A stretch of DNA of 64,000 nucleotides from NCBI GenBank assembly GCA_964016885.1, contig OZ024766.1, positions 12,400,001 through 12,464,000 on the forward strand. The letters are read 5' to 3'. Each line of letters opens with the position of its first letter. Positions within the stretch are counted from its first letter, which is position 1. Below the pieces are notes generated by a model. That model was not told where the DNA came from, made no database searches, and was given only the letters and a program-made list of their open reading frames with translations. Positions 8,348 to 64,000 of the stretch are shown piece by piece. A program made the position numbers and the translations under genes. This DNA comes from Eledone cirrhosa (Eukaryota).

Positions 8348-9679
8348 GAACCACGTCTGGTTGCATTAGTGTCACACCTGTGGTGCCCCAGTAGGGTCTC
8401 TGGGGTGACAACAGACTGCACTATTGGGGACCCACGTCTGGTTGCATTAGTGTCACACCTGTGGTGCCCCAGTAGGGTCTCTGTGGTGACAACAGACTGC
8501 ACTAGTGGCACTACTACGTCTGGTTGCAATAGTGTCACACCTGTAGTGCCCCAGTAGGGTCTCTGGGGTGACAACAGACTGCACTATTGGGGACCCACGT
8601 CTGGTTGCATTAGTGTCACACCTGTGGTGCCCCAGTAGGGTCTCTGTGGTGACAACAGACTGCACTAGTGGCACTACTACGTCTGGTTGCATTAGTGTCA
8701 CACCTGTGGTACCACAGAGACCCTACTGGGGCACCACAGGTGTGACACTAATGCAACCAGACGTAGTACTGCCACTAGTGCAGTCTGTTGTCACCACAGA
8801 GACCCTACTGGGGCACCACAGGTGTGACACTAATGCAACCAGACGTGGTTCCCCACTAGTGCAGTCTGTTGTCACCACAGCGACCCTTCTGGGGCACCAC
8901 AGGTGTGACACTAATGCAACCAGACGTGGTTCCCCACTAGTGCAGTCTGTTGTCACCACAGAGACCCTTCTGGGGCACCACAGGTGTGACACTAATGCAA
9001 CCAGACGTGGTTCCCCACTAGTGCAGTCTGTTGTCACCACAGCGACCCTTCTGGGGCACCACAGGTGTGACACTAATGCAACCAGACGTGGGTCCCCAAT
9101 AGTGCAGTCTGTTGTCACCACAGAGGCCCTACTGGGGCACCACAGGTGTGACACTAATGCAACCAGACGTAGTAGGGCCACTAGTGCAGTCTGTTGTCAC
9201 CACAGAGGCCCTACTGGGGTACCACAACTGTGACACTAATGCAACCAGACGTGGTTCCCCACTAGTGCAGTCTGTTGTCACCACAGCGACCCTTCTGGGG
9301 CACCACAGGTGTGACACTAATGCAACCAGACGTGGTTCCCCACTAGTGCAGTCTGTTGTCACCACAGAGACCCTTCTGGGGCACCACAGGTGTGACACTA
9401 ATGCAACCAGACGTGGGTCCCCAATAGTGCAGTCTGTTGTCACCACAGCGACCCTTCTGGGGCACCACAGGTGTGACACTAATGCAACCAGACGTGGTTC
9501 CCCACTAGTGCAGTCTGTTGTCACCACAGAGACCCTTCTGGTGCACCACAGGTGTGACACTAATGCAACCAGACGTGGTTCCCCACTAGTGCAGTCTGTT
9601 GTCACCACAGAGACCCTACTGGGGCACTACAGGTGTGACACTAATGCAACCAGACGTAGTAGGGCCACTAGTGCAGTCT
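8348..9679. repeat. 81/82-bp minisatellite (~16 copies) that switches orientation at 8710/8711
   Basis: About 4.5 copies in one orientation (8348-8710) and ~12 reverse-complement copies (8711-9679); junction palindrome CTGTGGT|ACCACAG. Confidence 0.96.
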
Positions 9680-10400
9680 CTATTCTCCATCATGTGTAGA
9701 AGGGACCCTGTGTTGTGACCTGTCCAGTCTTTGATGTTGTCAGACCAGGATTTCATTGTCTACCTATTCTTTTACTATCCCCTGAACAATGGTTGCAAAA
9801 TAAAGATTTGTGGCTGAATATGTGACCATACCAAGCAAACTTCCATAAACTATCTTTATCCCATTAATTCTCCTCATTTAATAATCTTTCGTAGTGGAAC
9901 TTTCATGTTGCTTTCTTATCAGTGAGGACAAGTATGCCATTATTATCACAGACCCACTACTCCCCGATAATATCACAATATTCCTTGACACGCTGTTTGT
10001 AGCTGAATATATGACCATACCAGGCAAACTTCCATATTTTCCCCATCACAACGACAGGTTCTTGTCTCCCGGCATATTTGTTAACGCATTACCTGACAAA
10101 GCTGTTTGTTTTGTGTTGTGTGTATAAGGATGTGTTGCAACCTTCTGAAGGACTTGTGCTCTATGTAGATGTTTAACAGCCTTCTGAAAGACTTGTGCTC
10201 TGTGTAAGGGATATGTAGCAACCTTCTAAAGGACTTGTACTCTGTGTACAAGGATGTGTAGCAACCATCTGAAGGGCTTGTGCCCTGTTTGTAGATAAGG
10301 AGTTTTAGAACCCCATCACAACGAGTGGTTCCTGGCTCCCAGCATATTTGTTAACCTGACAAAGATGTTTGTTTTGTGCTGAGTGTACAAGGATGTGTTG
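9660..10400 (-). mobile_element. Degenerate RTE-clade LINE ORF C-terminal remnant with internal duplications
   Basis: Minus-strand peptides across frameshifts: QHKTNIFVR..NKYAGSQEPL, KFAWYGHI (twice), TIVQGIV, RIGRQ, KSWSDNIKDWTGHNTGSLLHMMENRD. These match the RTE pattern EHKTN..VR / KLxWFGHV / TILQG / GRQRKxWxDNIKEWTG. Confidence 0.85.
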
Positions 10401-13400
10401 CAACCTTCTGAAGGACTTGTGCCCTCTGTATGGGATATGTAGTAACCTTCTGAAGGACTTGTGCCCTGTGTACGAGATGTTTAGTAACCTTCTGAAGGAC
10501 TTGTGCCCTGTGTACGAGATGTTTAGTAACCTTCTGAAGGACTTGTGCCCTGTGTACGAAATGTTTAGTAACCTTCTGAAGGACTTGTGCCCTGTGTACG
10601 AGATGTTTAGTAACCTTCTGAAGGACTTGTGCCCTGTGTACGAGATGTTTAGTAACCTTCTGAAGGACTTGTGCCCTGTGTACGAAATGTTTAGTAACCT
10701 TCTGAAGGACTTGTGCCCTGTGTACGAGATGTTTAGTAACCTTCTGAAGGACTTGTGCCCTGTGTACGAGATGTTTAGTAACCTTCTGAAGGACTTGTGC
10801 CCTGTGTACGAGATGTTTAGTAACCTTCTGAAGGACTTGTGCCCTGTGTACGAGATGTTTAGTAACCTTCTGAAGGACTTGTGCCCTGTGTACGAGATGT
10901 TTAGTAACCTTCTGAAGGACTTGTGCCCTGTGTACGAAATGTTTAGTAACCTTCTGAAGGACGTGTGCCCTGTGTACGAGATGTTTAGTAACCTTCTGAA
11001 GGACTAGTGCCCTGTGTACGAAATGTTTAGTAACCTTCTGAAGGACTTGTGCCCTGTGTACGAGATGTTTAGTAACCTTCTGAAGGACTTGTGCCCTGTG
11101 TACGAGATGTTTAGTAACCTTCTGAAGGACGTGTGCCCTGTGTACGAGATGTTTAGTAACCTTCTGAAGGACTTGTGCCCTGTGTACGAGATGTTTAGTA
11201 ACCTTCTGAAGGACTTGTGCCCTGTGTACGAGATGTTTAGTAACCTTCTGAAGGACTTGTGCCCTGTGTACGAAATGTTTAGTAACCTTCTGAAGGACTT
11301 GTGCCCTGTGTACGAGATGTTTAGTAACCTTCTGAAGGACTTGTGCCCTGTGTACGAGATGTTTAGTAACCTTCTGAAGGACTTGTGCCCTGTGTACGAG
11401 ATGTTTAGTAACCTTCTGAAGGACTTGTGCCCTGTGTACGAGATGTTTAGTAACCTTCTGAAGGACTTGTGCCCTGTGTACGAGATGTTTAGTAACCTTC
11501 TGAAGGACTTGTGCCCTGTGTACGAGATGTTTAGTAACCTTCTGAAGGACTTATGCCCTGTGTACGAGATGTTTAGTAACCTTCTGAAGGACTTGTGCCC
11601 TGTGTACGAAATGTTTAGTAACCTTCTGAAGGACTTGTGCCCTGTGTACGAGATGTTTAGTAACCTTCTGAAGGACTTGTGCCCTGTGTACGAAATGTTT
11701 AGTAACCTTCTGAAGGACTTGTGCCCTGTGTACGAGATGTTTAGTAACCTTCTGAAGGACTTGTGCCCTGTGTACGAAATGTTTAGTAACCTTCTGAAGG
11801 ACTTGTGCCCTGTGTACGAGATGTTTAGTAACCTTCTGAAGGACTTGTGCCCTGTGTACGAGATGTTTAGTAACCTTCTGAAGGACTTGTGCCCTGTGTA
11901 CGAGATGTTTAGTAACCTTCTGAAGGACTTGTGCCCTGTGTACGAAATGTTTAGTAACCTTCTGAAGGACTTGTGCCCTGTGTACGAGATGTTTAGTAAC
12001 CTTCTGAAGGACTTGTGCTCTGTGTACGAGATGTTTAGTAACCTTCTGAAGGACTTGTGCCCTGTGTACGAGATGTTTAGTAACCTTCTGAAGGACTTGT
12101 GCCCTGTGTACGAAATGTTTAGTAACCTTCTGAAGGACTTGTGCCCTGTGTACGAGATGTTTAGTAACCTTCTGAAGGACTTGTGCCCTGTGTACGAGAT
12201 GTTTAGTAACCTTCTGAAGGACTTGTGCCCTGTGTACGAAATGTTTAGTAACCTTCTGAAGGACTTGTGCCCTGTGTACGAGATGTTTAGTAACCTTCTG
12301 AAGGACTTGTGCCCTGTGTACGAGATGTTTAGTAACCTTCTGAAGGACTTGTGCCCTGTGTACGAGATGTTTAGTAACCTTCTGAAGGACTTGTGCCCTG
12401 TGTACGAGATGTTTAGTAACCTTCTGAAGGACTTGTGCCCTGTGTACGAGATGTTTAGTAACCTTCGGAAGGACTTGTGCCCTGTGTACGAAATGTTTAG
12501 TAACCTTCTGAAGGACTTGTGCCCTGTGTACGAGATGTTTAGTAACCTTCTGAAGGACTTGTGCTCTGTGTACGAGATGTTTAGTAACCTTCTGAAGGAC
12601 TTGTGCTCTGTGTACGAGATGTTTAGTAACCTTCTGAAGGACTTGTGCCCTGTGTACGAGATGTTTAGTAACCTTCTGAAGGACTTGTGCCCTGTGTACG
12701 AGATGTTTAGTAACCTTCTGAAGGACTTGTGCCCTGTGTACGAGATGTTTAGTAACCTTCTGAAGGACTTGTGCCCTGTGTACGAGATGTTTAGTAACCT
12801 TCTGAAGGACTTGTGCCCTGTGTACGAAATGTTTAGTAACCTTCTGAAGGACTTGTGCCCTGTGTACGAGATGTTTAGTAACCTTCTGAAGGACTTGTGC
12901 CCTGTGTACGAGATGTTTAGTAACCTTCTGAAGGACTTGTGCCCTGTGTACGAGATGTTTAGTAACCTTCTGAAGGACTTGTGCCCTGTGTACGAGATGT
13001 TTAGTAACCTTCTGAAGGACTTGTGCCCTGTGTACGAGATGTTTAGTAACCTTCTGAAGGACTTGTGCCCTGTGTACGAAATGTTTAGTAACCTTCTGAA
13101 GGACTTGTGCCCTGTGTACGAGATGTTTAGTAACCTTCTGAAGGACTTGTGCCCTGTGTACGAAATGTTTAGTAACCTTCTGAAGGACTTGTGCCCTGTG
13201 TACGAGATGTTTAGTAACCTTCTGAAGGACTTGTGCCCTGTGTACGAGATGTTTAGTAACCTTCTGAAGGACTTGTGCCCTGTGTACGAGATGTTTAGTA
13301 ACCTTCTGAAGGACTTGTGCCCTGTGTACGAGATGTTTAGTAACCTTCTGAAGGACTTGTGCCCTGTGTACGAGATGTTTAGTAACCTTCTGAAGGACTT

Positions 13401-16400
13401 GTGCTCTGTGTACGAGATGTTTAGTAACCTTCTGAAGGACTTGTGCCCTGTGTACGAGATGTTTAGTAACCTTCTGAAGGACTTGTGCCCTGTGTACGAG
13501 ATGTTTAGTAACCTTCTGAAGGACTTGTGCCCTGTGTACGAGATGTTTAGTAACCTTCTGAAGGACTTGTGCCCTGTGTACGAGATGTTTAGTAACCTTC
13601 TGAAGGACTTGTGCCCTGTGTACGAGATGTTTAGTAACCTTCTGAAGGACTTGTGCCCTGTGTACGAGATGTTTAGTAACCTTCTGAAGGACTTGTGCCC
13701 TGTGTACGAGATGTTTAGTAACCTTCTGAAGGACTTGTGCCCTGTGTACGAGATGTTTAGTAACCTTCTGAAGGACTTGTGCCCTGTGTACGAGATGTTT
13801 AGTAACCTTCTGAAGGACTTGTGCCCTGTGTACGAGATGTTTAGTAACCTTCTGAAGGACTTGTGCCCTGTGTACGAGATGTTTAGTAACCTTCTGAAGG
13901 ACTTGTGCCCTGTGTACGAGATGTTTAGTAACCTTCTGAAGGACTTGTGCCCTGTGTACGAGATGTTTAGTAACCTTCTGAAGGACTTGTGCCCTGTGTA
14001 CGAGATGTTTAGTAACCTTCTGAAGGACTTGTGCCCTGTGTACGAGATGTTTAGTAACCTTCTGAAGGACTTGTGCTCTGTGTACGAGATGTTTAGTAAC
14101 CTTCTGAAGGACTTGTGCCCTGTGTACGAGATGTTTAGTAACCTTCTGAAGGACTTGTGCCCTGTGTACGAGATGTTTAGTAACCTTCTGAAGGACTTGT
14201 GCTCTGTGTACGAGATGTTTAGTAACCTTCTGAAGGACTTGTGCCCTGTGTACGAGATGTTTAGTAACCTTCTGAAGGACTTGTGCCCTGTGTACGAGAT
14301 GTTTAGTAACCTTCTGAAGGACTTGTGCCCTGTGTACGAGATGTTTAGTAACCTTCTGAAGGACTTGTGCCCTGTGTACGAGATGTTTAGTAACCTTCTG
14401 AAGGACTTGTGCTCTGTGTACGAGATGTTTAGTAACCTTCTGAAGGACTTGTGCCCTGTGTACGAGATGTTTAGTAACCTTCTGAAGGACTTGTGCCCTG
14501 TGTACGAGATGTTTAGTAACCTTCTGAAGGACTTGTGCCCTGTGTACGAGATGTTTAGTAACCTTCTGAAGGACTTGTGCCCTGTGTACGAGATGTTTAG
14601 TAACCTTCTGAAGGACTTGTGCCCTGTGTACGAGATGTTTAGTAACCTTCTGAAGGACTTGTGCCCTGTGTACGAGATGTTTAGTAACCTTCTGAAGGAC
14701 TTGTGCCCTGTGTACGAGATGTTTAGTAACCTTCTGAAGGACTTGTGCCCTGTGTACGAGATGTTTAGTAACCTTCTGAAGGACTTGTGCCTTGTGTACG
14801 AGATGTTTAGTAACTTTCTGAAGGACTTGTGCCCTGTGTACGAGATGTTTAGTAACCTTCTGAAGGACTTGTGCCCTGTGTACGAGATGTTTAGTAACCT
14901 TCTGAAGGACTTGTGCCCTGTGTACGAGATGTTTAGTAACCTTCTGAAGGACTTGTGCTCTGTGTACGAGATGTTTAGTAACCTTCTGAAGGACTTGTGC
15001 CCTGTGTACGAGATGTTTAGTAACCTTCTGAAGGACTTGTGCCCTGTGTACGAGATGTTTAGTAACCTTCTGAAGGACTTGTGCTCTGTGTACGAGATGT
15101 TTAGTAACCTTCTGAAGGACTTGTGCCCTGTGTACGAGATGTTTAGTAACCTTCTGAAGGACTTGTGCCCTGTGTACGAGATGTTTAGTAACCTTCTGAA
15201 GGACTTGTGCCCTGTGTACGAGATGTTTAGTAACCTTCTGAAGGACTTGTGCCCTGTGTACGAGATGTTTAGTAACCTTCTGAAGGACTTGTGCTCTGTG
15301 TACGAGATGTTTAGTAACCTTCTGAAGGACTTGTGCCCTGTGTACGAGATGTTTAGTAACCTTCTGAAGGACTTGTGCCCTGTGTACGAGATGTTTAGTA
15401 ACCTTCTGAAGGACTTGTGCCCTGTGTACGAGATGTTTAGTAACCTTCTGAAGGACTTGTGCCCTGTGTACGAGATGTTTAGTAACCTTCTGAAGGACTT
15501 GTGCCCTGTGTACGAGATGTTTAGTAACCTTCTGAAGGACTTGTGCCCTGTGTACGAGATGTTTAGTAACCTTCTGAAGGACTTGTGCCCTGTGTACGAG
15601 ATGTTTAGTAACCTTCTGAAGGACTTGTGCCCTGTGTACGAGATGTTTAGTAACCTTCTGAAGGACTTGTGCCCTGTGTACGAGATGTTTAGTAACCTTC
15701 TGAAGGACTTGTGCCCTGTGTACGAGATGTTTAGTAACCTTCTGAAGGACTTGTGCCCTGTGTACGAGATGTTTAGTAACCTTCTGAAGGACTTGTGCCC
15801 TGTGTACGAGATGTTTAGTAACCTTCTGAAGGACTTGTGCCCTGTGTACGAGATGTTTAGTAACCTTCTGAAGGACTTGTGCCCTGTGTACGAGATGTTT
15901 AGTAACCTTCTGAAGGACTTGTGCTCTGTGTACGAGATGTTTAGTAACCTTCTGAAGGACTTGTGCCCTGTGTACGAGAGGTTTAGTAACCTTCTGAAGG
16001 ACTTGTGCCCTGTGTACGAGATGTTTAGTAACCTTCTGAAGGACTTGTGCTCTGTGTACGAGATGTTTAGTAACCTTCTGAAGGACTTGTGCCCTGTGTA
16101 CGAGATGTTTAGTAACCTTCTGAAGGACTTGTGCCCTGTGTACGAGATGTTTAGTAACCTTCTGAAGGACTTGTGCCCTGTGTACGAGATGTTTAGTAAC
16201 CTTCTGAAGGACTTGTGCCCTGTGTACGAGATGTTTAGTAACCTTCTGAAGGACTTGTGCTCTGTGTACGAGATGTTTAGTAACCTTCTGAAGGACTTGT
16301 GCCCTGTGTACGAGATGTTTAGTAACCTTCTGAAGGACTTGTGCCCTGTGTACGAGATGTTTAGTAACCTTCTGAAGGACTTGTGCCCTGTGTACGAGAT

Positions 16401-19400
16401 GTTTAGTAACCTTCTGAAGGACTTGTGCCCTGTGTACGAGATGTTTAGTAACCTTCTGAAGGACTTGTGCCCTGTGTACGAGATGTTTAGTAACCTTCTG
16501 AAGGACTTGTGCCCTGTGTACGAGATGTTTAGTAACCTTCTGAAGGACTTGTGCCCTGTGTACGAGATGTTTAGTAACCTTCTGAAGGACTTGTGCCCTG
16601 TGTACGAGATGTTTAGTAACCTTCTGAAGGACTTGTGCCCTGTGTACGAGATGTTTAGTAACTTTCTGAAGGACTTGTGCCCTGTGTACGAGATGTTTAG
16701 TAACCTTCTGAAGGACTTGTGCCCTGTGTACGAGATGTTTAGTAACCTTCTGAAGGACTTGTGCCCTGTGTACGAGATGTTTAGTAACCTTCTGAAGGAC
16801 TTGTGCTCTGTGTACGAGATGTTTAGTAACCTTCTGAAGGACTTGTGCCCTGTGTACGAGATGTTTAGTAACCTTCTGAAGGACTTGTGCCCTGTGTACG
16901 AGATGTTTAGTAACCTTCTGAAGGACTTGTGCTCTGTGTACGAGATGTTTAGTAACCTTCTGAAGGACTTGTGCCCTGTGTACGAGATGTTTAGTAACCT
17001 TCTGAAGGACTTGTGCCCTGTGTACGAGATGTTTAGTAACCTTCTGAAGGACTTGTGCCCTGTGTACGAGATGTTTAGTAACCTTCTGAAGGACTTGTGC
17101 CCTGTGTACGAGATGTTTAGTAACCTTCTGAAGGACTTGTGCTCTGTGTACGAGATGTTTAGTAACCTTCTGAAGGACTTGTGCCCTGTGTACGAGATGT
17201 TTAGTAACCTTCTGAAGGACTTGTGCCCTGTGTATGGGATATGTAGCAACCTTCTGAAGGACTTGTGCTCTGTGTACGGGATGTTTAGTAACCTTCTGAA
17301 GGACTTGTGCCCTTTGTATGGGATATGTAGCAACCTTCTGAAGGACTTGTGCTCTGTGTACGAGATGTTTAGTAACCTTCTGAAGGACTTGTGCCCTGTG
17401 TACGAGATGTTTAGTAACCTTCTGAAGGACTTGTGCCCTGTGTACGAGATGTTTAGTAACCTTCTGAAGGACTTGTGCCCTGTGTACGAGATGTTTAGTA
17501 ACCTTCTGAAGGACTTGTGCCCTGTGTACGAGATGTTTAGTAACCTTCTGAAGGACTTGTGCCCTGTGTACGAGATGTTTAGTAACCTTCTGAAGGACTT
17601 GTGCCCTGTGTACGAGATGTTTAGTAACCTTCTGAAGGACTTGTGCCCTGTGTACGAGATGTTTAGTAACCTTCTGAAGGACTTGTGCCCTGTGTACGAA
17701 ATGTTTAGTAACCTTCTGAAGGACTTGTGCCCTGTGTACGAGATGTTTAGTAACCTTCTGAAGGACTTGTGCCCTGTGTACGAGATGTTTAGTAACCTTC
17801 GGAAGGACTTGTGCCCTGTGTACGAAATGTTTAGTAACCTTCTGAAGGACTTGTGCTCTGTGTACGAGATGTTTAGTAACCTTCTGAAGGACTTGTGCCC
17901 TGTGTACGAGATGTTTAGTAACCTTCTGAAGGACTTGTGCCCTGGTACGAAATGTTTAGTAACCTTCTGAAGGACTTGTGCCCTGTGTACGAGATGTTTA
18001 GTAACCTTCTGAAGGACTTGTGCCCTGTGTACGAGATGTTTAGTAACCTTCTGAAGGACTTGTGCCCTGCGTACGAAATGTTTAGTAACCTTCTGAAGGA
18101 CTTGTGCCCTGTGTACGAGATGTTTAGTAACCTTCTGAAGGACTTGTGCCCTGTGTACGAGATGTTTAGTAACCTTCTGAAGGACTTGTGCCCTGTGTAC
18201 GAGATGTTTAGCAATCTTCTGAAGGACTTGTGCTCTGTGTACGAGATGTTTAGCAACCTTCTGAAGGACTTGTGCCCTGTGTACGAGATGTTTAGTAACC
18301 TTCTGAAGGACTTGTGCCCTGTGTACGAGATGTTTAGCAACCTTCTGAAGGACTTGTGCTCTGTGTACGAGATGTTTAGCAACCTTCTGAAGGACTTGTG
18401 CCCTGTGTACGAGATGTTTAGTAACCTTCTGAAGGACTTGTGCCCTGTGTACGAGATATTTAGTAACCTTCTGAAGGACTTGTGCCCTGTGTACGAGATG
18501 TTTAGTAACCTTCTGAAGGACTTGTGCTCTGTGTACGAGATGTTTAGTAACCTTCTGAAGGACTTGTGCCCTGTGTACGAGATGTTTAGTAACCTTCTGA
18601 AGGACTTGTGCTCTGTGTACGAGATGTTTAGTAACCTTCTGAAGGACTTGTGCTCTGTGTACGAGATGTTTAGTAACCTTCTGAAGGACTTGTGCCCTGT
18701 GTACGAGATGTTTAGTAACCTTCTGAAGGACTTGTGCCCTGTGTACGAGATGTTTAGTAACCTTCTGAAGGACTTGTGCCCTGTGTACGAGATGTTTAGT
18801 AACCTTCTGAAGGACTTGTGCCCTGTGTACGAGATGTTTAGTAACCTTCTGAAGGACTTGTGCCCTGTGTACGAGATGTTTAGTAACCTTCTGAAGGACT
18901 TGTGCCCTGTGTACGAGATGTTTAGTAACCTTCTGAAGGACTTGTGCCCTGTGTACGAGATGTTTAGTAACCTTCTGAAGGACTTGTGCCCTGTGTACGA
19001 GATGTTTAGTAACCTTCTGAAGGACTTGTGCCCTGTGTACGAGATGTTTAGTAACCTTCTGAAGGACTTGTGCTCTGTGTACGAGATGTTTAGTAACCTT
19101 CTGAAGGACTTGTGCCTGTGTACGAGATGTTTAGTAACCTTCTGAAGGACTTGTGCCCTGTGTGCGAGATGTTTAGTAACCTTCTGAAGGACTTGTGCTC
19201 TGTGTACGAGATGTTTAGTAACCTTCTGAAGGACTTGTGCCCTGTGTACGAGATGTTTAGTAACCTTCTGAAGGACTTGTGCCCTGTGTACGAGATGTTT
19301 AGTAACCTTCTGAAGGACTTGTGCCCTGTGTACGAGATGTTTAGTAACCTTCTGAAGGACTTGTGCCCTGTGTACGAGATGTTTAGTAACCTTCTGAAGG

Positions 19401-22400
19401 ACTTGTGCCCTGTGTACGAGATGTTTAGTAACCTTCTGAAGGACTTGTGCCCTGTGTACGAGATGTTTAGTAACCTTCTGAAGGACTTGTGCCCTGTGTA
19501 CGAGATGTTTAGTAACCTTCTGAAGGACTTGTGCTCTGTGTACGAGATGTTTAGTAACCTTCTGAAGGACTTGTGCCCTGTGTACGAGATGTTTAGTAAC
19601 CTTCTGAAGGACTTGTGCCCTGTGTACGAGATGTTTAGTAACCTTCTGAAGGACTTGTGCTCTGTGTACGAGATGTTTAGTAACCTTCTGAAGGACTTGT
19701 GCCCTGTGTACGAGATGTTTAGTAACCTTCTGAAGGACTTGTGCCCTGTGTACGAGATGTTTAGTAACCTTCTGAAGGACTTGTGCCCTGTGTACGAGAT
19801 GTTTAGTAACCTTCTGAAGGACTTGTGCCCTGTGTACGAGATGTTTAGTAACCTTCTGAAGGACTTGTGCTCTGTGTACGAGATGTTTAGTAACCTTCTG
19901 AAGGACTTGTGCCCTGTGTACGAGATGTTTAGTAACCTTCTGAAGGACTTGTGCCCTGTGTACGAGATGTTTAGTAACCTTCTGAAGGACTTGTGCCCTG
20001 TGTACGAGATGTTTAGTAACCTTCTGAAGGACTTGTGCCCTGTGTACGAGATGTTTAGTAACCTTCTGAAGGACTTGTGCCCTGTGTACGAGATGTTTAG
20101 TAACCTTCTGAAGGACTTGTGCCCTGTGTACGAGATGTTTAGTAACCTTCTGAAGGACTTGTGCCCTGTGTACGAGATGTTTAGTAACCTTCTGAAGGAC
20201 TTGTGCCCTGTGTACGAGATGTTTAGTAACCTTCTGAAGGACTTGTGCCCTGTGTACGAGATGTTTAGTAACTTTCTGAAGGACTTGTGCCCTGTGTACG
20301 AGATGTTTAGTAACCTTCTGAAGGACTTGTGCCCTGTGTACGAGATGTTTAGTAACCTTCTGAAGGACTTGTGCCCTGTGTACGAGATGTTTAGTAACCT
20401 TCTGAAGGACTTGTGCTCTGTGTACGAGATGTTTAGTAACCTTCTGAAGGACTTGTGCCCTGTGTACGAGATGTTTAGTAACCTTCTGAAGGACTTGTGC
20501 CCTGTGTACGAGATGTTTAGTAACCTTCTGAAGGACTTGTGCTCTGTGTACGAGATGTTTAGTAACCTTCTGAAGGACTTGTGCCCTGTGTACGAGATGT
20601 TTAGTAACCTTCTGAAGGACTTGTGCCCTGTGTACGAGATGTTTAGTAACCTTCTGAAGGACTTGTGCCCTGTGTACGAGATGTTTAGTAACCTTCTGAA
20701 GGACTTGTGCCCTGTGTACGAGATGTTTAGTAACCTTCTGAAGGACTTGTGCTCTGTGTACGAGATGTTTAGTAACCTTCTGAAGGACTTGTGCCCTGTG
20801 TACGAGATGTTTAGTAACCTTCTGAAGGACTTGTGCCCTGTGTATGGGATATGTAGCAACCTTCTGAAGGACTTGTGCTCTGTGTACGGGATGTTTAGTA
20901 ACCTTCTGAAGGACTTGTGCCCTTTGTATGGGATATGTAGCAACCTTCTGAAGGACTTGTGCTCTGTGTACGAGATGTTTAGTAACCTTCTGAAGGACTT
21001 GTGCCCTGTGTACGAGATGTTTAGTAACCTTCTGAAGGACTTGTGCCCTGTGTACGAGATGTTTAGTAACCTTCTGAAGGACTTGTGCCCTGTGTACGAG
21101 ATGTTTAGTAACCTTCTGAAGGACTTGTGCCCTGTGTACGAGATGTTTAGTAACCTTCTGAAGGACTTGTGCCCTGTGTACGAGATGTTTAGTAACCTTC
21201 TGAAGGACTTGTGCCCTGTGTACGAGATGTTTAGTAACCTTCTGAAGGACTTGTGCCCTGTGTACGAGATGTTTAGTAACCTTCTGAAGGACTTGTGCCC
21301 TGTGTACGAAATGTTTAGTAACCTTCTGAAGGACTTGTGCCCTGTGTACGAGATGTTTAGTAACCTTCTGAAGGACTTGTGCCCTGTGTACGAGATGTTT
21401 AGTAACCTTCGGAAGGACTTGTGCCCTGTGTACGAAATGTTTAGTAACCTTCTGAAGGACTTGTGCTCTGTGTACGAGATGTTTAGTAACCTTCTGAAGG
21501 ACTTGTGCCCTGTGTACGAGATGTTTAGTAACCTTCTGAAGGACTTGTGCCCTGTGTACGAAATGTTTAGTAACCTTCTGAAGGACTTGTGCCCTGTGTA
21601 CGAGATGTTTAGTAACCTTCTGAAGGACTTGTGCCCTGTGTACGAGATGTTTAGTAACCTTCTGAAGGACTTGTGCCCTGCGTACGAAATGTTTAGTAAC
21701 CTTCTGAAGGACTTGTGCCCTGTGTACGAGATGTTTAGTAACCTTCTGAAGGACTTGTGCCCTGTGTACGAGATGTTTAGTAACCTTCTGAAGGACTTGT
21801 GCCCTGTGTACGAGATGTTTAGCAATCTTCTGAAGGACTTGTGCTCTGTGTACGAGATGTTTAGCAACCTTCTGAAGGACTTGTGCCCTGTGTACGAGAT
21901 GTTTAGTAACCTTCTGAAGGACTTGTGCCCTGTGTACGAGATGTTTAGCAACCTTCTGAAGGACTTGTGCTCTGTGTACGAGATGTTTAGCAACCTTCTG
22001 AAGGACTTGTGCCCTGTGTACGAGATGTTTAGTAACCTTCTGAAGGACTTGTGCCCTGTGTACGAGATGTTTAGTAACCTTCTGAAGGACTTGTGCCCTG
22101 TGTACGAGATGTTTAGTAACCTTCTGAAGGACTTGTGCTCTGTGTACGAGATGTTTAGTAACCTTCTGAAGGACTTGTGCCCTGTGTACGAGATGTTTAG
22201 TAACCTTCTGAAGGACTTGTGCTCTGTGTACGAGATGTTTAGTAACCTTCTGAAGGACTTGTGCTCTGTGTACGAGATGTTTAGTAACCTTCTGAAGGAC
22301 TTGTGCCCTGTGTACGAGATGTTTAGTAACCTTCTGAAGGACTTGTGCCCTGTGTACGAGATGTTTAGTAACCTTCTGAAGGACTTGTGCCCTGTGTACG

Positions 22401-23945
22401 AGATGTTTAGTAACCTTCTGAAGGACTTGTGCCCTGTGTACGAGATGTTTAGTAACCTTCTGAAGGACTTGTGCCCTGTGTACGAGATGTTTAGTAACCT
22501 TCTGAAGGACTTGTGCCCTGTGTACGAGATGTTTAGTAACCTTCTGAAGGACTTGTGCCCTGTGTACGAGATGTTTAGTAACCTTCTGAAGGACTTGTGC
22601 CCTGTGTACGAGATGTTTAGTAACCTTCTGAAGGACTTGTGCCCTGTGTACGAGATGTTTAGTAACCTTCTGAAGGACTTGTGCTCTGTGTACGAGATGT
22701 TTAGTAACCTTCTGAAGGACTTGTGCCTGTGTACGAGATGTTTAGTAACCTTCTGAAGGACTTGTGCCCTGTGTGCGAGATGTTTAGTAACCTTCTGAAG
22801 GACTTGTGCTCTGTGTACGAGATGTTTAGTAACCTTCTGAAGGACTTGTGCCCTGTGTACGAGATGTTTAGTAACCTTCTGAAGGACTTGTGCCCTGTGT
22901 ACGAGATGTTTAGTAACCTTCTGAAGGACTTGTGCCCTGTGTACGAGATGTTTAGTAACCTTCTGAAGGACTTGTGCCCTGTGTACGAGATGTTTAGTAA
23001 CCTTCTGAAGGACTTGTGCTCTGTTTACGAGATGTTTAGTAACCTTCTGAAGGACTTGTGCCCTGTGTACGAGATGTTTAGTAACCTTCTGAAGGACTTG
23101 TGCCCTGTGTATGGGATATGTAGCAACCTTCTGAAGGACTTGTGCTCTGTGTACGAGATGTTTAGTAACCTTCTGAAGGACTTGTGCCCTCTGTATGGGA
23201 TATGTAGCAACCTTCTGAAGGACTTGTGCTCTGTGTACGAGATGTTTAGTAACCTTCTGAAGGACTTGTGCCCTGTGTACGAGATGTTTAGTAACCTTCT
23301 GAAGGACTTGTGCTCTGTGTACGAGATGTTTAGTAACCTTCTGAAGGACTTGTGCCCTGTGTACGAGATGTTTAGTAACCTTCTGAAGGACTTGTGCCCT
23401 GTGTACGAGATGTTTAGTAACCTTCTGAAGGACTTGTGCTCTGTGTACGAGATGTTTAGTAACCTTCTGAAGGACTTGTGCCCTGTGTACGAGATGTTTA
23501 GTAACCTTCTGAAGGACTTGTGCCCTGTGTACGAGATGTTTAGTAACCTTCTGAAGGACTTGTGCCCTGTGTACGAGATGTTTAGTAACCTTCTGAAGGA
23601 CTTGTGCCCTGTGTACGAGATGTTTAGTAACCTTCTGAAGGACTTGTGCTCTGTGTACGAGATGTTTAGTAACCTTCTGAAGGACTTGTGCCCTGTGTAC
23701 GAGATGTTTAGTAACCTTCTGAAGGACTTGTGCCCTGTGTACGAGATGTTTAGTAACCTTCTGAAGGACTTGTGCCCTCTGTATGGGATATGTAGCAACC
23801 TTCTGAAGGACTTGTGCCCTGTGTACGAGATGTTTAGTAACCTTCTGAAGGACTTGTGCCCTCTGTATGGGATATGTAGCAACCTTCTGAAGGACTTGTG
23901 CCCTGTGTACGAAATGTTTAGTAACCTTCTGAAGGACTTGTGCTC
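10374..23945. repeat. 42-bp satellite (~320 copies, 13.6 kb; GTACGAGATGTTTAGTAACCTTCTGAAGGACTTGTGCCCTGT)
   Basis: 42-bp period, highly homogeneous; 1-bp deletions near 17944, 19116 and 22727; about four diverged units also at ~10125-10290. Confidence 0.99.
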
Positions 23946-24000
23946 AAATGACAGGATTCTTTGTTCCATGTCAGCTGCGAGAGTCCACCTCTCACACATG
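23938..24000 (-). mobile_element. RTE-clade LINE ORF segment leading into the 42-bp array
   Basis: Minus strand CERWTLAADMEQRILSFEHKSFRRLLNISYT matches RTE YGCExWTL...xRIxAFExKCxRxLLxISY. Confidence 0.85.
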
Positions 24001-24327
24001 GAAAGACAGTGGCCCCACTTGAGGTGTCTATGGCCATTGTCATTGGAAAACCTCCATGCTTCCTGAAATTCACCAACACTATACCTGACACACCCCCCCC
24101 CTCCGTACACACGCACACATGTACCTGTGTGTATTTCATGACTCATACACTGTTCACTTTCCTCACATTTGTACATTACCCTATGTACTATACACCTTTG
24201 ATGAGTTGTAGTGCACCTGAGCACTGTACACAAAAATTTCATTATTATTATATCATTATATGTCTGGTTGTCTGAGTCCACCTCTCACACATGGAAATAC
24301 GGTGGCCCCACTTGAGGTGTCTTTGGC
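23981..24327. repeat. Dispersed 54-bp direct repeat (23981-24034 and 24274-24327)
   Basis: GAGTCCACCTCTCACACATGGAAA(G/T)AC(A/G)GTGGCCCCACTTGAGGTGTCT(A/T)TGGC; 3 mismatches, offset 293 bp. Confidence 0.9.
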
Positions 24328-24430
24328 GAGGTACGGTTCAGACTGTAATGTCCCCTCCTCTCCCTTTCGTTGCTTGCTTGATCCCTTTTTTCCATTTCTG
24401 TTCCTTTAATAGAGTCTTTTGTTTCTAGTT

Positions 24431-45700: not shown

Positions 45701-48700
45701 AGTCTTAGCAGTACCTCCTTTGGCAGAAGTGACCAGGGTGAGTCTTAGCAGTACCTCCTTTGGCAGAAGTGACCAGGGTGAGTCTTAGCACTATCTCCTT
45801 TGGCAGAAGTGACCAGGGTGAGTCTTAGTAGTACCTCCTTTGGCAGAAGTGACCAGGGTGAGTCTTAGTAGTACCTCCTTTGGCAGAAGTGACCAGGGTG
45901 AGTCTTAGCAGTACCTCCTTTGGCAGAAGTGACCAGGGTGAGTCTTAGCAGTATCTCCTTTGACAGAAGTGACCAGGGTGAGTCTTAGCTGTATCTCCTT
46001 TGGCAGAAGTGACCAGGGTGAGTCTTAGCAGTATCTCCTTTGGCAGAAGTGACCAGGGTGAGTCTTAGCAGTATCTCCTTTGGCAGAAGTGACCAGGGTG
46101 AGTCTTAGCAGTACCTCCTTTGGCAGAAGTGACCAGGGTGAGTCTTAGCAGTATCTCCTTTGACAGAAGTGACCAGGGTGAGTCTTAGCAGTATCTCTTT
46201 TGGCAGAAGTGACCAGGGTGAGTCTTAGCAGTATCTCCTTTGGCAGAAGTGACCAGGGTGAGTCTTAGCAGTATCTCCTTTGGCATAAGTGACCAGGGTG
46301 AGTCTTAGCAGTACCTCCTTTGGCAGAAGTGACCAGGGTGAGTCTTAGCAGTACCTCCTTTGGCAGAAGTGACCAGGGTGAGTCTTAGCACTATCTCCTT
46401 TGGCAGAAGTGACCAGGGTGAGTCTTAGTAGTACCTCCTTTGGCAGAAGTGACCAGGGTGAGTCTTAGTAGTACCTCCTTTGGCAGAAGTGACCAGGGTG
46501 AGTCTTAGCAGTATCTCCTTTGGCAGAAGTGACCAGGGTGAGTCTTAGCAGTATCTCCTTTGGCGGAAGTGACCAGGGTGAGTCTTAGCTGTATCTCCTT
46601 TGGCAGAAGTGACCAGGGTGAGTCTTAGCAGTATCTCCTTTGGCAGAAGTGACCAGGGTGAGTCTTAGCAGTATCTCCTTTGGCAGAAGTGACCAGGGTG
46701 AGTCTTAGCAGTACCTCCTTTGGCAGAAGTGACCAGGGTGAGTCTTAGCAGTATCTCCTTTGGCAGAAGTGACCAGGGTGAGTCTTAGCAGTATCTCCTT
46801 TGGCAGAAGTGAGCAGGGTGAGTCTTAGCAGTATCTCCTTTGGCAGAAGTGACCAGGGTGAGTCTTAGCAGTATCTCCTTTGGCAGAAGTGACCAGGGTG
46901 AGTCTTAGCAGTATCTCCTTTGGCAGAAGTGACCAGGGTGAGTCTTAGCAGTATCTCCTTTGGCAGAAGTGACCAGGGTGAGTCTTAGCAGTATCTCCTT
47001 TGGCAGAAGTGACCAGGGTGAGTCTTAGCAGTACCTCCTTTGGCAGAAGTGACCAGGGTGAGTCTTAGCAGTATCTCCTTTGGCAGAAGTGACCAGGGTG
47101 AGTCTTAGCAGTATCTCCTTTGGCAGAAGTGACCAGGGTGAGTCTTAGCAGTATCTCCTTTGGCAGAAGTGACCAGGGTGAGTCTTAGCAGTATCTCCTT
47201 TGGCAGAAGTGACCAGGGTGAGTCTTAGCAGTATCTCCTTTGGCAGAAGTGACCAGGGTGAGTCTTAGCAGTATCTCCTTTGGCAGAAGTGACCAGGGTG
47301 AGTCTTAGCAGTATCTCCTTTGGCAGAAGTGACCAGGGTGAGTCTTAGCAGTATCTCCTTTGGCAGAAGTGACCAGGGTGAGTCTTAGCAGTATCTCCTT
47401 TGGCAGAAGTGACCAGGGTGAGTCTTAGCAGTACCTCCTTTGGCAGAAGTGACCAGGGTGAGTCTTAGCAGTATCTCCTTTGGCAGAAGTGACCAGGGTG
47501 AGTCTTAGCAGTATCTCCTTTGGCAGAAGTGACCAGGGTGAGTCTTAGCAGTACCTCCTTTGGCAGAAGTGACCAGGGTGAGTCTTAGCAGTATCTTGGC
47601 AGAAGTGACCAGGGTGAGTCTTAGCAGTATCTTGGCAGAAGTGACCAGGGTGAGTCTTAGCAGTACCTCCTTTGGCAGAAGTGACCAGGGTGAGTCTTAG
47701 CACTATCTCCTTTGGCAGAAGTGACCAGGGTGAGCCTTAGCAGTATCTCCTTTGGCAGAAGTGACCAGGGTGAGTCTTAGCAGTATCTCCTTTGGCAGAA
47801 GTGACCAGGGTGAGTCTTAGCAGTACCTCCTTTGGCAGAAGTGACCAGGGTGAGTCTTAGTAGTACCTCCTTTGGCAGAAGTGACCAGGGTGAGTCTTAG
47901 CAGTACCTCCTTTGACAGAAGTGACCAGGGTGAGTCTTAGCAGTACCTCCTTTGATAGAAGTGACCAGGGTGAGTCTTAGCAGTACCTCCTTTGACAGAA
48001 GTGACCAGGGTGAGTCTTAGCAGTACCACCTTTGACAGAAGTGACCAGGGTGAGTCTTAGCAGTATCTCCTTTGGCAGAAGTGACCAGGGTGAGTCTTAG
48101 CAGTATCTCCTTTGGCAGAAGTGACCAGGGTGAGTCTTAGCAGTACCTCCTTTGGCAGAAGTGACCAGGGTGAGTCTTAGCAGTATCTCCTTTGGCAGAA
48201 GTGACCAGGGTGAGTCTTAGCAGTACCTCCTTTGGCAGAAGTTACCAGGGTGAGTCTTAGCAGTATCTCCTTTGACAGAAGTGACCAGGGTGAGTCTTAG
48301 CAGTATCTCTTTTGGCAGAAGTGACCAGGGTGAGTCTTAGCAGTATCTCCTTTGGCAGAAGTGACCAGGGTGAGTCTTAGCAGTATCTCCTTTGGCATAA
48401 GTGACCAGGGTGAGTCTTAGCAGTACCTCCTTTGGCAGAAGTGACCAGGGTGAGTCTTAGCAGTACCTCCTTTGGCAGAAGTGACCAGGGTGAGTCTTAG
48501 CACTATCTCCTTTGGCAGAAGTGACCAGGGTGAGTCTTAGTAGTACCTCCTTTGGCAGAAGTGACCAGGGTGAGTCTTAGTAGTACCTCCTTTGGCAGAA
48601 GTGACCAGGGTGAGTCTTAGCAGTATCTCCTTTGGCGGAAGTGACCAGGGTGAGTCTTAGCTGTATCTCCTTTGGCAGAAGTGACCAGGGTGAGTCTTAG

Positions 48701-51700
48701 CAGTATCTCCTTTGGCAGAAGTGACCAGGGTGAGTCTTAGCAGTATCTCCTTTGGCAGAAGTGACCAGGGTGAGTCTTAGCAGTACCTCCTTTGGCAGAA
48801 GTGACCAGGGTGAGTCTTAGCAGTATCTCCTTTGGCAGAAGTGACCAGGGTGAGTCTTAGCAGTATCTCCTTTGGCAGAAGTGACCAGGGTGAGTCTTAG
48901 CAGTACCTCCTTTGGCAGAAGTGACCAGTGTGAGTCTTAGCAGTATCTTGGCAGAAGTGACCAGGGTGAGTCTTAGCAGTATCTTGGCAGAAGTGACCAG
49001 GGTGAGTCTTAGCAGTACCTCCTTTGGCAGAAGTGACCAGGGTGAGTCTTAGCAGTATCTCCTTTGGCAGAAGTGACCAGGGTGAGTCTTAGCAGTATCT
49101 CCTTTGGCAGAAGTGACCAGGGTGAGTCTTAGCACTATCTCCTTTGGCAGAAGTGACCAGGGTGAGTCTTAGCAGTACCTCCTTTGGCAGAAGTGACCAG
49201 GGTGAGTCTTAGCAGTATCTCCTTTGGCAGAAGTGACCAGGGTGAGTCTTAGTAGTACCTCCTTTGGCAGAAGTGACCAGGGTGAGTCTTAGCAGTATCT
49301 CCTTTGGCAGAAGTGACCAGGGTGAGTCTTAGTAGTACCTCCTTTGGCAGAAGTGACCAGGGTGAGTCTTAGCAGTATCTCCTTTGGCAGAAGTGACCAG
49401 GGTGAGTCTTAGCAGTATCTCCTTTGACAGAAGTGACCAGGGTGAGTCTTAGCAGTACCTCCTTTGGCAGAAGTGACCAGGGTGAGTCTTAGCAGTATCT
49501 CCTTTGGCAGAAGTGACCAGGGTTAGTCTTAGCAGTATCTCTTTTGGCAGAAGTGACCAGGGTGAGTCTTAGCAGTATCTCCTTTGGCAGAAGTGACCAG
49601 GGTTAGTCTTAGCAGTATCTCGTTTGGCAGAAGTGACCAGGGTGAGTCTTAGCAGTATCTCCTTTGGCAGAAGTGACCAGGGTGAGTCTTAGCAGTATCT
49701 CCTTTGGCAGAAGTGACCAGGGTGAGTCTTAGCAGTATCTCCTTTGGCAGAAGTGACCAGGGTGAGTCTTAGCAGTATCTCCTTTGGCAGAAGTGACCAG
49801 GGTGAGTCTTAGCAGTATCTCCTTTGGCAGAAGTGACCAGGGTGAGTCTTAGCAGTATCTCCTTTGGCAGAAGTGACCAGGGTGAGTCTTAGCAGTACCT
49901 CCTTTGGCAGAAGTGACCAGGGTGAGTCTTAGCAGTATCTCCTTTGGCAGAAGTGACCAGGGTGAGTCTTAGCAGTATCTCCTTTGGCAGAAGTGACCAG
50001 GGTGAGTCTTAGCAGTATCTCCTTTGGCAGAAGTGACCAGGGTGAGTCTTAGCAGTATCTCCTTTGGCAGAAGTGACCAGGGTGAGTCTTAGCAGTATCT
50101 CCTTTGGCAGAAGTGACCAGGGTGAGTCTTAGCAGTATCTCCTTTGGCAGAAGTGACCAGGGTGAGTCTTAGCAGTATCTCCTTTGGCAGAAGTGACCAG
50201 GGTGAGTCTTAGCAGTATCTCCTTTGGCAGAAGTGACCAGGGTGAGTCTTAGCAGTATCTCCTTTGGCAGAAGTGACCAGGGTGAGTCTTAGCAGTACCT
50301 CCTTTGGCAGAAGTGACCAGGGTGAGTCTTAGCAGTATCTCCTTTGGCAGAAGTGACCAGGGTGAGTCTTAGCAGTATCTCCTTTGGCAGAAGTGACCAG
50401 GGTGAGTCTTAGCAGTACCTCCTTTGGCAGAAGTGACCAGGGTGAGTCTTAGCAGTATCTTGGCAGAAGTGACCAGGGTGAGTCTTAGCAGTATCTTGGC
50501 AGAAGTGACCAGGGTGAGTCTTAGCAGTACCTCCTTTGGCAGAAGTGACCAGGGTGAGTCTTAGCACTATCTCCTTTGGCAGAAGTGACCAGGGTGAGCC
50601 TTAGCAGTATCTCCTTTGGCAGAAGTGACCAGGGTGAGTCTTAGCAGTATCTCCTTTGGCAGAAGTGACCAGGGTGAGTCTTAGCAGTACCTCCTTTGGC
50701 AGAAGTGACCAGGGTGAGTCTTAGTAGTACCTCCTTTGGCAGAAGTGACCAGGGTGAGTCTTAGCAGTACCTCCTTTGACAGAAGTGACCAGGGTGAGTC
50801 TTAGCAGTACCTCCTTTGATAGAAGTGACCAGGGTGAGTCTTAGCAGTACCTCCTTTGACAGAAGTGACCAGGGTGAGTCTTAGCAGTACCTCCTTTGAC
50901 AGAAGTGACCAGGGTGAGTCTTAGCAGTATCTCCTTTGGCAGAAGTGACCAGGGTGAGTCTTAGCAGTATCTCCTTTGGCAGAAGTGACCAGGGTCAGTC
51001 TTAGTAGTACCTCCTTTGGCAGAAGTGACCAGGGTGAGTCTTAGCAGTATCTCCTTTGGCAGAAGTGACCAGGGTGAGTCTTAGCAGTACCTCCTTTGGC
51101 AGAAGTTACCAGGGTGAGTCTTAGCAGTATCTCCTTTGACAGAAGTGACCAGGGTGAGTCTTAGCAGTATCTCTTTTGGCAGAAGTGACCAGGGTGAGTC
51201 TTAGCAGTATCTCCTTTGGCAGAAGTGACCAGGGTGAGTCTTAGCAGTATCTCCTTTGGCATAAGTGACCAGGGTGAGTCTTAGCAGTACCTCCTTTGGC
51301 AGAAGTGACCAGGGTGAGTCTTAGCAGTACCTCCTTTGGCAGAAGTGACCAGGGTGAGTCTTAGCAGTATCTCCTTTGGCAGAAGTGACCAGGGTGAGTC
51401 TTAGTAGTACCTCCTTTGGCAGAAGTGACCAGGGTGAGTCTTAGTAGTACCTCCTTTGGCAGAAGTGACCAGGGTGAGTCTTAGCAGTATCTCCTTTGGC
51501 AGAAGTGACCAGGGTGAGTCTTAGCAGTATCTCCTTTGGCGGAAGTGACCAGGGTGAGTCTTAGCTGTATCTCCTTTGGCAGAAGTGACCAGGGTGAGTC
51601 TTAGCAGTATCTCCTTTGGCAGAAGTGACCAGGGTGAGTCTTAGCAGTATCTCCTTTGGCAGAAGTGACCAGGGTGAGTCTTAGCAGTATCTCCTTTGGC

Positions 51701-60700: not shown

Positions 60701-63700
60701 CAGTACCTCCTTTGGCAGAAGTGACCAGGGTGAGTCTTAGCAGTATCTCCTTTGGCAGAAGTGACCAGGGTGAGTCTTAGCAGTATCTCCTTTGGCAGAA
60801 GTGACCAGGGTGAGTCTTAGCAGTATCTCCTTTGGCAGAAGTGACCTGGGTGAGTCTTAGCAGTATCTCCTTTGGCAGAAGTGACCAGGGTGAGTCTTAG
60901 CAGTATCTCCTTTGGCAGAAGTGACCAGGGTGAGTCTTAGCAGTATCTCCTTTGGCAGAAGTGACCAGGGTGAGTCTTAGCAGTATCTCCTTTGGCAGAA
61001 GTGACCAGGGTGAGTCTTAGCAGTATCTCTTTTGGCAGAAGTGACCAGGGTGAGTCTTAGCAGTATCTCCTTTGGCAGAAGTGACCAGGGTGAGTCTTAG
61101 CAGTACCTCCTTTGGCAGAAGTGACCAGGGTGAGTCTTAGCAGTATCTCCTTTGGCAGAAGTGACCAGGGTGAGTCTTAGCAGTATCTCCTTTGGCAGAA
61201 GTGACCAGGGTGAGTCTTAGCAGTACCTCCTTTGGCAGAAGTGACCAGGGTGAGTCTTAGCAGTATCTTGGCAGAAGTGACCAGGGTGAGTCTTAGCAGT
61301 ATCTTGGCAGAAGTGACCAGGGTGAGTCTTAGCAGTACCTCCTTTGGCAGAAGTGACCAGGGTGAGTCTTAGCAGTACCTCCTTTGGCAGAAGTGACCAG
61401 GGTGAGTCTTAGCAGTACCTCCTTTGGCAGAAGTGACCAGGGTGAGTCTTAGCAGTATCTCCTTTGGCAGAAGTGACCAGGGTGAGTCTTAGTAGTACCT
61501 CCTTTGGCAGAAGTGACCAGGGTGAGTCTTAGCAGTATCTCCTTTGGCAGAAGTGACCAGGGTGAGTCTTAGCAGTATCTCCTTTGGCGGAAGTGACCAG
61601 GGTGAGTCTTAGCTGTATCTCCTTTGGCAGAAGTGACCAGGGTGAGTCTTAGCAGTATCTCCTTTGGCAGAAGTGACCAGGGTGAGTCTTAGCAGTATCT
61701 CCTTTGGCAGAAGTGACCAGGGTGAGTCTTAGCAGTATCTCCTTTGGCAGAAGTGACCAGGGTGAGTCTTAGCAGTATCTCCTTTGGCAGAAGTGACCAG
61801 GGTGAGTCTTAGCAGTACCTCCTTTGGCAGAAGTGACCAGGGTGAGTCTTAGCAGTATCTTGGCAGAAGTGACCAGGGTGAGTCTTAGCAGTATCTTGGC
61901 AGAAGTGACCAGGGTGAGTCTTAGCAGTACCTCCTTTGGCAGAAGTGACCAGGGTGAGTCTTAGCACTATCTCCTTTGGCAGAAGTGACCAGGGTGAGCC
62001 TTAGCAGTATCTCCTTTGGCAGAAGTGACCAGGGTGAGTCTTAGCAGTATCTCCTTTGGCAGAATTGACCAGGGTGAGTCTTAGCAGTATCTCCTTTGGC
62101 AGAAGTGACCAGGGTGAGTCTTAGCACTATCTCCTTTGGCAGAAGTGACCAGGGTGAGTCTTAGCAGTACCTCCTTTGGCAGAAGTGACCAGGGTGAGTC
62201 TTAGCAGTATCTCCTTTGGCAGAAGTGACCAGGGTGAGTCTTAGCAGTATCTCCTTTGGCAGAAGTGACCAGGGTGAGTCTTAGTAGTACCTCCTTTGGC
62301 AGAAGTGACCAGGGTGAGTCTTAGTAGTACCTCCTTTGGCAGAAGTGACCAGGGTGAGTCTTAGCAGTATCTCCTTTGGCAGAAGTGACCAGGGTGAGTC
62401 TTAGTAGTACCTCCTTTGGCAGAAGTGACCAGGGTGAGTCTTAGCAGTATCTCCTTTGGCAGAAGTGACCAGGGTGAGTCTTAGTAGTACCTCCTTTGGC
62501 AGAAGTGACCAGGGTGAGTCTTAGCAGTATCTCCTTTGGCAGAAGTGACCAGGGTGAGTCTTAGCAGTATCTCCTTTGACAGAAGTGACCAGGGTGAGTC
62601 TTAGCAGTACCTCCTTTGGCAGAAGTGACCAGGGTGAGTCTTAGCAGTATCTCCTTTGGCAGAAATGACCAGGGTTAGTCTTAGCAGTATCTCTTTTGGC
62701 AGAAGTGACCAGGGTGAGTCTTAGCAGTATCTCCTTTGGCAGATGTGACCAGGGTGAGTCTTAGCAGTATCTCCTTTGGCAGAAGTGACCAGGGTGAGTC
62801 TTAGCAGTATCTCCTTTGGCAGAAGTGACCAGGGTGAGTCTTAGCAGTATCTCCTTTGGCAGAAGTGACCAGGGTGAGTCTTAGCAGCATCTCCTTTGGC
62901 AGAAGTGACCAGGGTGAGTCTTAGCAGTATCTCCTTTGGCAGAAGTGACCAGGGTGAGTCTTAGCAGTATCTCCTTTGGCAGAAGTGACCAGGGTGAGTC
63001 TTAGCAGTATCTCCTTTGGCAGAAGTGACCAGGGTGAGTCTTAGCAGTATCTCCTTTGGCAGAAGTGACCAGGGTGAGTCTTAGCAGTACCTCCTTTGGC
63101 AGAAGTGACCAGGGTGAGTCTTAGCAGTATCTCCTTTGGCAGAAGTGACCAGGGTGAGTCTTAGCAGTATCTCCTTTGGCAGAAGTGACCAGGGTGAGTC
63201 TTAGCAGTATCTCCTTTGGCAGAAGTGACCTGGGTGAGTCTTAGCAGTATCTCCTTTGGCAGAAGTGACCAGGGTGAGTCTTAGCAGTATCTCCTTTGGC
63301 AGAAGTGACCAGGGTGAGTCTTAGCAGTATCTCCTTTGGCAGAAGTGACCAGGGTGAGTCTTAGCAGTATCTCCTTTGGCAGAAGTGACCAGGGTGAGTC
63401 TTAGCAGTATCTCTTTTGGCAGAAGTGACCAGGGTGAGTCTTAGCAGTATCTCCTTTGGCAGAAGTGACCAGGGTGAGTCTTAGCAGTACCTCCTTTGGC
63501 AGAAGTGACCAGGGTGAGTCTTAGCAGTATCTCCTTTGGCAGAAGTGACCAGGGTGAGTCTTAGCAGTATCTCCTTTGGCAGAAGTGACCAGGGTGAGTC
63601 TTAGCAGTACCTCCTTTGGCAGAAGTGACCAGGGTGAGTCTTAGCAGTATCTTGGCAGAAGTGACCAGGGTGAGTCTTAGCAGTATCTTGGCAGAAGTGA

Positions 63701-64000
63701 CCAGGGTGAGTCTTAGCAGTACCTCCTTTGGCAGAAGTGACCAGGGTGAGTCTTAGCACTATCTCTTTTGGCAGAAGTGACCAGGGTGAGCCTTAGCAGT
63801 ATCTCCTTTGGCAGAAGTGACCAGGGTGAGTCTTAGCAGTACCTCCTTTGACAGAAGTGACCAGGGTGAGTCTTAGCACTATCTCCTTTGGCAGAAATGA
63901 CCAGGGTGAGTCTTAGCAGTACCTCCTTTGGCAGAAGTGACCAGGGTGAGTCTTAGCACTATCTCCTTTGGCAGAAGTGACCAGGGTGATTCTTAGCAGT
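30743..64000. repeat. 40-bp satellite (>830 copies, >33 kb, runs off window; TCCTTTGGCAGAAGTGACCAGGGTGAGTCTTAGCAGTA(T/C)C) with 36-bp deletion variants
   Basis: 40-bp period throughout; 4-bp deletion variant GTATCTTGGC; multi-kb higher-order duplications. Confidence 0.99.

Follow-up and report, generated by a model that had tools for sequence, protein, structure and literature searches.

The window analysed here is a 64,000-nucleotide stretch of Eledone cirrhosa DNA (C27:12400001–12464000 of a 3.0-Gb assembly; coordinates above 64,000 extend the window numbering into the neighbouring stretch L021). We explain the locus, with a probability of roughly 0.8, as one decayed, 5′-truncated RTE-type long interspersed nuclear element (LINE) copy, short segments of which were duplicated in place and then hugely amplified in an array-prone chromosome region. 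Tandem Repeats Finder (TRF) places four arrays in this one relic, with units of 40, 24, 42 and 81 bp; by alignment, a single decayed LINE 3′ end supplies, in colinear order, the 40-, 42- and 81-bp units as well as the unique stretches. The LINE content amounts to ~0.69 kb (family-profile columns 188–872), now stretched over 58 kb, in agreement with a first-pass annotation that had estimated 0.6–0.7 kb of LINE inflated to more than 55 kb.

One LINE relic in colinear pieces

Searching the separate natural pieces with P0003, a 1,025-residue relative with Pfam domains for an apurinic endonuclease (APE) and for a reverse transcriptase (RT), gave one ordered minus-strand tblastn series over residues 796–1001. 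Residues 796–813 match weakly at 66455–66402 (E 0.07), followed by 838–868 at 30785–30693 (3e-7), 884 onward from 23996 (5e-14), 913–951 at 10124–10008, 944–971 at 9842–9765 and 977–1001 at 9753–9679. At the DNA level, the genomic copy L001 aligns in the same order (66455–66403, 30786–30685, 23997 onward, 10297–10007 and 9761–9676). The single colinear alignment to one family that the first-pass annotation had proposed as its check is thus obtained with both P0003 and L001; its view of different satellites as colinear pieces of one retrotransposon open reading frame (ORF), in the motif order of a post-RT RTE-clade C terminus, holds, and the peptides it quoted are present in the minus-strand frames. 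The relic diverges by 15.7% from the family majority, and 56 plain copies by 9.8%. A check for a target-site duplication found both ends of the window copy rearranged.

The 40-bp array, from the RTE ORF (KEILLRLTLVTSA; minus strand, 895 units by TRF and alignment), occupies 30743–64000 and continues to 66368, ending 2.4 kb past the window edge. Directly beyond it lies the 5′ stub of the relic, from the late RT region (66369–66455, minus strand), with 81% identity to L001 over 53 bp (E 5e-8). Upstream RT sequence had been predicted to resume past the far end of this array, and it does so for ~90 bp before stopping; the YLG...DG-like motif expected there is itself decayed and partly deleted. On its other side, the array is followed by a unique ORF piece (KVKLNILWKRNSISFPTK; 30685–30742) and, beyond a nested insert, by a second (CERWTLAADMEQRILSF; 23944–23997), both identified from minus-strand frames and alignments. 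The latter adjoins the 42-bp array (HKSFRRLLNISYTG; 10383–23943, minus strand, 323 units by TRF), whose unit is flanked by an 8-bp direct repeat native to the family. For the 40- and 42-mers alike, the unit aligns to RTE and RTE sequence continues in register on both sides.

The C-terminal ORF region (9676–10385, minus strand) had been described as unique, a description that fails: it contains four diverged 42-mers, two QHKTN..QEP segments, two KFAWYGHI segments and ~160 bp of foreign DNA. It leads into the 81-bp array (8704–9679, minus strand, 12 units), which combines the RTE 3′ end with a 41-bp duplication of it in diverged form, and then into an inverted, plus-strand 4.5-unit block of the same array (8350–8717), with a fold-back at 8704–8717 centred on a 10-bp palindrome, where the RTE tail is lost. 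RTE sequence continues only on the upstream side of the 81-mer, and its direct match is weak (score 46 versus a maximum of 39 in 500 shuffles), the derivation from the RTE 3′ end being clearer through paralogue L127. Its terminal SVTPVVPQ*, previously read as the C terminus, is not that of the family, the 81-mer having come from the 3′ end with rearrangement and divergence.

Between the two unique ORF pieces, ~35 bp of LINE (L001 positions 392 to 427) is missing at the nested insert. Together with the internal duplications and the fold-back inversion, this loss contradicts the earlier claim of intact junctions. The 24-bp array (24960–30679, 242 units by TRF) has expanded out of 1.5 units lying where the insert starts, and its flanking repeat is imperfect, at ~9 bp. 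The remainder (24000–24959) combines an old core, a dispersed repeat common to the paralogues, with additions: an element bounded by 18-bp direct repeats (24888–24871 and 24688–24671), which we take to be SINE-like (a short interspersed nuclear element); a TA microsatellite (24452–24627); and a high-copy repeat (24047–24251) between ~49-bp duplicates (from 24322 and 24029). Three C2 sites carry the core with no RTE. A single local insertion is therefore rejected: the block at ~24000–30680 is a nested insertion, as proposed, but not a simple one, its old core being present in paralogues and its 24-mer amplified in place.

Assignment to an RTE-type family rests on ORF and tail features, no match in the relative search carrying an RTE name; a Pfam search of a post-RT peptide returned spurious matches only. 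The closest long relatives are mostly 1,010–1,035 residues with PF03372/PF14529 plus PF00078, and the genomic copies L231 and L236, though broken, span residues 1–1025 in order, so that a single ~1,000-residue APE–RT ORF is found for the family through its relatives, the window copy being truncated. Family copies, decayed by about 10% from their majority sequence, end in (TGA)n directly after the ORF; this tail is lost in the window copy. Both the single ORF and the short tandem-repeat 3′ tail resemble the RTE-clade features stated in PMC5850137. RTE-2_OV of Octopus vulgaris is described in PMC9115989, in the accessible text of which the word 'tandem' is absent.

Paralogues, sister copies and region

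A junction-region search places the relic or its flanks at 11 other sites (C294, C7 (2), C12 (3), C15, C18, C21, C24 and C27:8.95 Mb); two of the paralogues lie inverted and ~6 kb apart within C12:47.083–47.093 Mb (L125). Because 8 of 10 aligned paralogues have the same 3′ insertion junction, and most the same insert core, the LINE insertion and the nested insertion probably preceded a series of segmental duplications.

The closest paralogue, C294, is 99% identical to the window over 388 bp, with mismatches at 4/388, 3/110 and ~4/114 aligned bases. It nevertheless holds two 40-mers, 1.5 24-mers and ~1 81-mer and has no SINE-like element, and more distant paralogues carry at most one partial 40-mer. 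As C294 is near-identical with its units unamplified, the window expansions are likely recent and local. The earlier claim that pieces were amplified in place is borne out by these unamplified paralogues. Among scored matches, the tandem 40-mer is confined to the window plus the two C294 units, the 81-mer to the window and C294, and the 24-mer has no donor array elsewhere. C294 has instead amplified other pieces, of 16, 32, 40 and 44 bp, and a shared 62-mer to ~21 kb. It is a mosaic, ~90% identical upstream to C27:8.95 Mb and ~80% to the window, with the RTE patch at 99%. That C294 is simply the other allele is not supported, the flanks being only ~80% alike upstream and mostly unrelated downstream. 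In the 77 kb fetched from this 80-kb unplaced contig (L116–L123), tandem arrays make up 57%; the unit of its 16-bp array (44610–49290) also occurs in the insert core, and the 62-bp array it shares is found next to the window as 42 units from L021 position 5143 onward (69143–71743).

The window locus is not unique, since 42-bp arrays and 41-bp 3′ junctions recur in numerous RTE copies elsewhere. The 42-bp arrays have up to 3,222 units, locus numbers being lower bounds. RTE sequence flanks each of the 14 fetched 42-bp-array loci on one side or both (downstream in 13, upstream in 10), and 7 of them carry an extra 3′ array of 27/41/68-bp units, so the earlier suggestion that several colinear arrays from one copy are unusual does not stand. 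With array-neutral queries (58 loci minus the query's own, L041), two or more 42-mers were found in only 2 of 57 copies, the other 55 having at most one. Derived-change sharing among array loci is 0.148 (97 pairs), little above the background values of 0.118 (1,504 pairs) and 0.131 (794 pairs); between the window and four paralogues it is 0.39–0.92. Monomers diverge by 15% between 13 loci and mostly by 1–5% inside an array, although L136 and L137 have a common monomer near the family majority. Derived changes shared near background and monomers that are mostly locus-specific point to independent births of the 42-bp arrays at separate copies. Array-bearing copies as one clade are likewise not supported by derived-change sharing or by diagnostic bases, except for the paralogue-like C24 loci L139–L141, of which L140 and L141 were left out of the monomer, junction-enrichment and chromosome counts. 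The largest array, an unbroken 135 kb of 42-mers (C15:31362300–31497700, 3,222 units), has RTE downstream and another repeat upstream.

Expansion also extends beyond the LINE. A Helitron Rep/PIF1 helicase gene (210–5562) contains a private in-frame 36-bp array (1794–3666, 52 units), with no repeated hits in 39 siblings (90–95% identity) and one unit in the 5 examined in detail. We counted 24 arrays in 204 kb around the window, 20 in 77 kb of C294 and 11 in 90 kb of paralogues; in two control sets around RTE and Helitron copies, mostly on C1–C4 and covering 145 kb and 65 kb, there were none. On small versus large chromosomes, 42-bp arrays number 10 and 4, and single-unit copies 9 and 43 (Fisher p 2e-4; three unplaced contigs and L054 also left out), both copy sets being best search matches rather than a census. 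Because the 42-mer recurs at unrelated RTE copies and the neighbouring Helitron is also expanded, element sequence and genomic region both appear to matter for array formation.

Array growth and competing explanations

The proposed history opens with three points that the assembly shows: insertion of the 3′ ~0.7 kb of the LINE, replacement of ~35 bp of it by another dispersed repeat, and presence of the relic plus flanks at the 11 other sites. Dimers may then have formed by slippage or template switching, presumably at the 8-bp natural repeat for the 42-mer, the imperfect ~9-bp repeat for the 24-mer and three shared bases for the 40-mer, whereas the 81-mer would have been reassembled out of a 41-bp 3′ duplication, which the element probably brought with it. 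Among direct repeats with a spacing of 20–99 in 880 family columns, the 8-bp one (spacing 42) ties for the greatest length. It falls within the 5–20-bp flanking repeats of the Haber–Louis model, as cited for human arrays in PMC3389668; the 3-bp repeat bounding the 40-mer falls short of them. Variant order suggests how the arrays last grew. Units lie 1.9% (40-mer) and 1.1% (42-mer) from the modal or consensus unit, and the 71 distinct 40-mer variants occur in nested order; since a 59-unit block recurs at lag 60 in the 40-mer array and a 46-unit block at lag 86 in the 42-mer array, recent growth would have proceeded by copying blocks of tens of units. Amplification was likely by unequal recombination-type copying, the block pattern being what one would expect of unequal exchange or break-induced copying. 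The explanation implies no function.

An active RTE subfamily could instead have carried built-in tandem units, a variable number of tandem repeats (VNTR) as in SVA or Ogre, with only the lengthening local. We consider this unlikely for the locus as a whole, though likely true for the 81-mer seed. The same compound 41-bp junction has 130 exact matches and is identical at at least 22 loci; all 20 fetched loci contain at least three junctions, most with a normal RTE tail and with differing 5′ truncations, for which a seeded subfamily is the simplest reading, and the seed of the 81-mer may thus have come with the element rather than arisen locally. The junction is a plain dimer in 2 of 57 array-neutral copies and is enriched in 42-bp-array copies (7/11 versus 2/48). 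More than one 42-mer, however, is found in none of the 20 junction loci, 42-bp arrays exist without the junction (L036, L040 and L137), no fixed diagnostic base sets the carriers of the junction apart (the best of 903 tests gave p 0.0017), the 40- and 42-mers are single in the parent family, and the tandem 40-mer and 81-mer are private among scored matches. Loci L204–L223 show RTE 3′ ends with mixed arrays of 14-, 27-, 41- and 68-bp units from the same two sub-units.

Less probable still is the import of existing arrays from other loci, by homology-directed conversion or circle re-insertion into RTE copies. The 135-kb C15 array offers a reservoir of 42-mers, and the C294 mosaic implies that ectopic exchange seems to happen in this genome, but most arrays have their own monomer, that of the window differs from that of C15, and the scored matches hold no donor array elsewhere for the 40-, 24- or 81-mer. 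We give least credence to assembly artefacts in array lengths or joins. Misassembly can yield exact kilobase-scale block repeats, and four sequencing runs searched with 23860–24450 returned no spanning record, the matches being dominated by other repeat copies; set against this are the nested 40-mer variants, junctions that keep the LINE register to either side and the same architecture on many contigs. A 72-bp 42-mer contig has a word depth of ~1000 in run X1, a value that is not locus-specific and may reflect the source sample.

Several observations weigh against in-place duplication and amplification in an array-prone region as we propose it. C294 also has deletions, so its short state could partly reflect contraction. 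A third control set, from large chromosomes, contains 4 arrays in 102 kb, 9 of 22 listed 41-bp-junction loci lie on C1–C4, and the chromosome bias may be inflated because best search matches were compared. Real flanking microhomology is lacking for the Helitron 36-mer (only 2 bp) and for the 40-mer (3 bp), and dimer formation therefore follows no one rule. Copying is read from one assembly rather than from alleles. Monomers of different loci differ somewhat less (15%) than do plain copies when the same columns are compared (19%), so some exchange or subfamily structure may exist.

Known systems and wider setting

The case is one of transposable element (TE)-derived minisatellite formation, a known kind of event at unusual scale and recurrence. 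Human TE-derived mini- and satellites, with hotspots in AluS and LTR12 (Ahmed and Liang 2012, PMC3389668), are alike in starting inside inserted copies and growing by local duplication, in having, in some cases, 5–20-bp flanking direct repeats, and in using some TE positions as hotspots, partly since the element already held a repeat. According to the available part of that report, most human arrays have two units and there is no genomic hotspot; here, arrays reach hundreds to thousands of units, four lie in one relic and a regional bias is apparent. In the accessible part of a review (PMC9659126), which has no whole-word mention of RTE, the common cetacean satellite (L1), PROsat (L1 ORF2) and chicken HinfI (CR1) similarly take their monomer from a LINE ORF or 3′ end; unlike those families, every array here still lies in register within its parent copy. 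Ogre 3′-untranslated-region repeats giving rise to PisTR-A (PMC9659126) resemble the 41-bp unit, in that a 3′-end repeat seeds larger arrays, but Ogre is a long terminal repeat element with built-in arrays, whereas the 40- and 42-bp units are single in their parent. Our searches of the open literature returned no account of RTE-derived in-place arrays in a cephalopod. What distinguishes this system is its scale, the four arrays in one relic, the many replicate births and the apparent regional bias.

The origin of long satellites from single-copy sequence is usually inferred from end products. This one genome holds the ancestral unit, unamplified paralogues, dimers and arrays of 2 to 3,222 units, so that counting can tell apart what microhomology, copy age and chromosomal position each contribute; as the same pieces are expanded in dozens of sister copies, it likely offers many replicates of satellite birth. 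For annotation, a single 0.7-kb LINE relic shows up in a scan for tandem repeats as four unrelated arrays; the inflation of such relics also adds to genome size. At even odds, we further suggest a general 'accordion' process on small chromosomes and in distal regions, turning any resident 16–81-bp piece into a private array, up to 135 kb long, in the span of 1–2% sequence divergence; old transposon copies, whose one-unit ancestor is known, would record it through dozens of same-site births, each independent. If true, nature would here have run a replicated experiment on how satellites arise and grow.

Other elements surround the relic. One at window 5915–7005 runs into a 37-bp array (6997–8105), and another, at L021 2760–3250, is absent from C294; both presumably have Helentron-like ends. 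Across L022–L031, several 84-bp repeats, which we take to resemble C2H2 zinc-finger exons, are interleaved with 48/49-, 65-, 72- and 112-bp arrays, which turn up repeatedly throughout the region.

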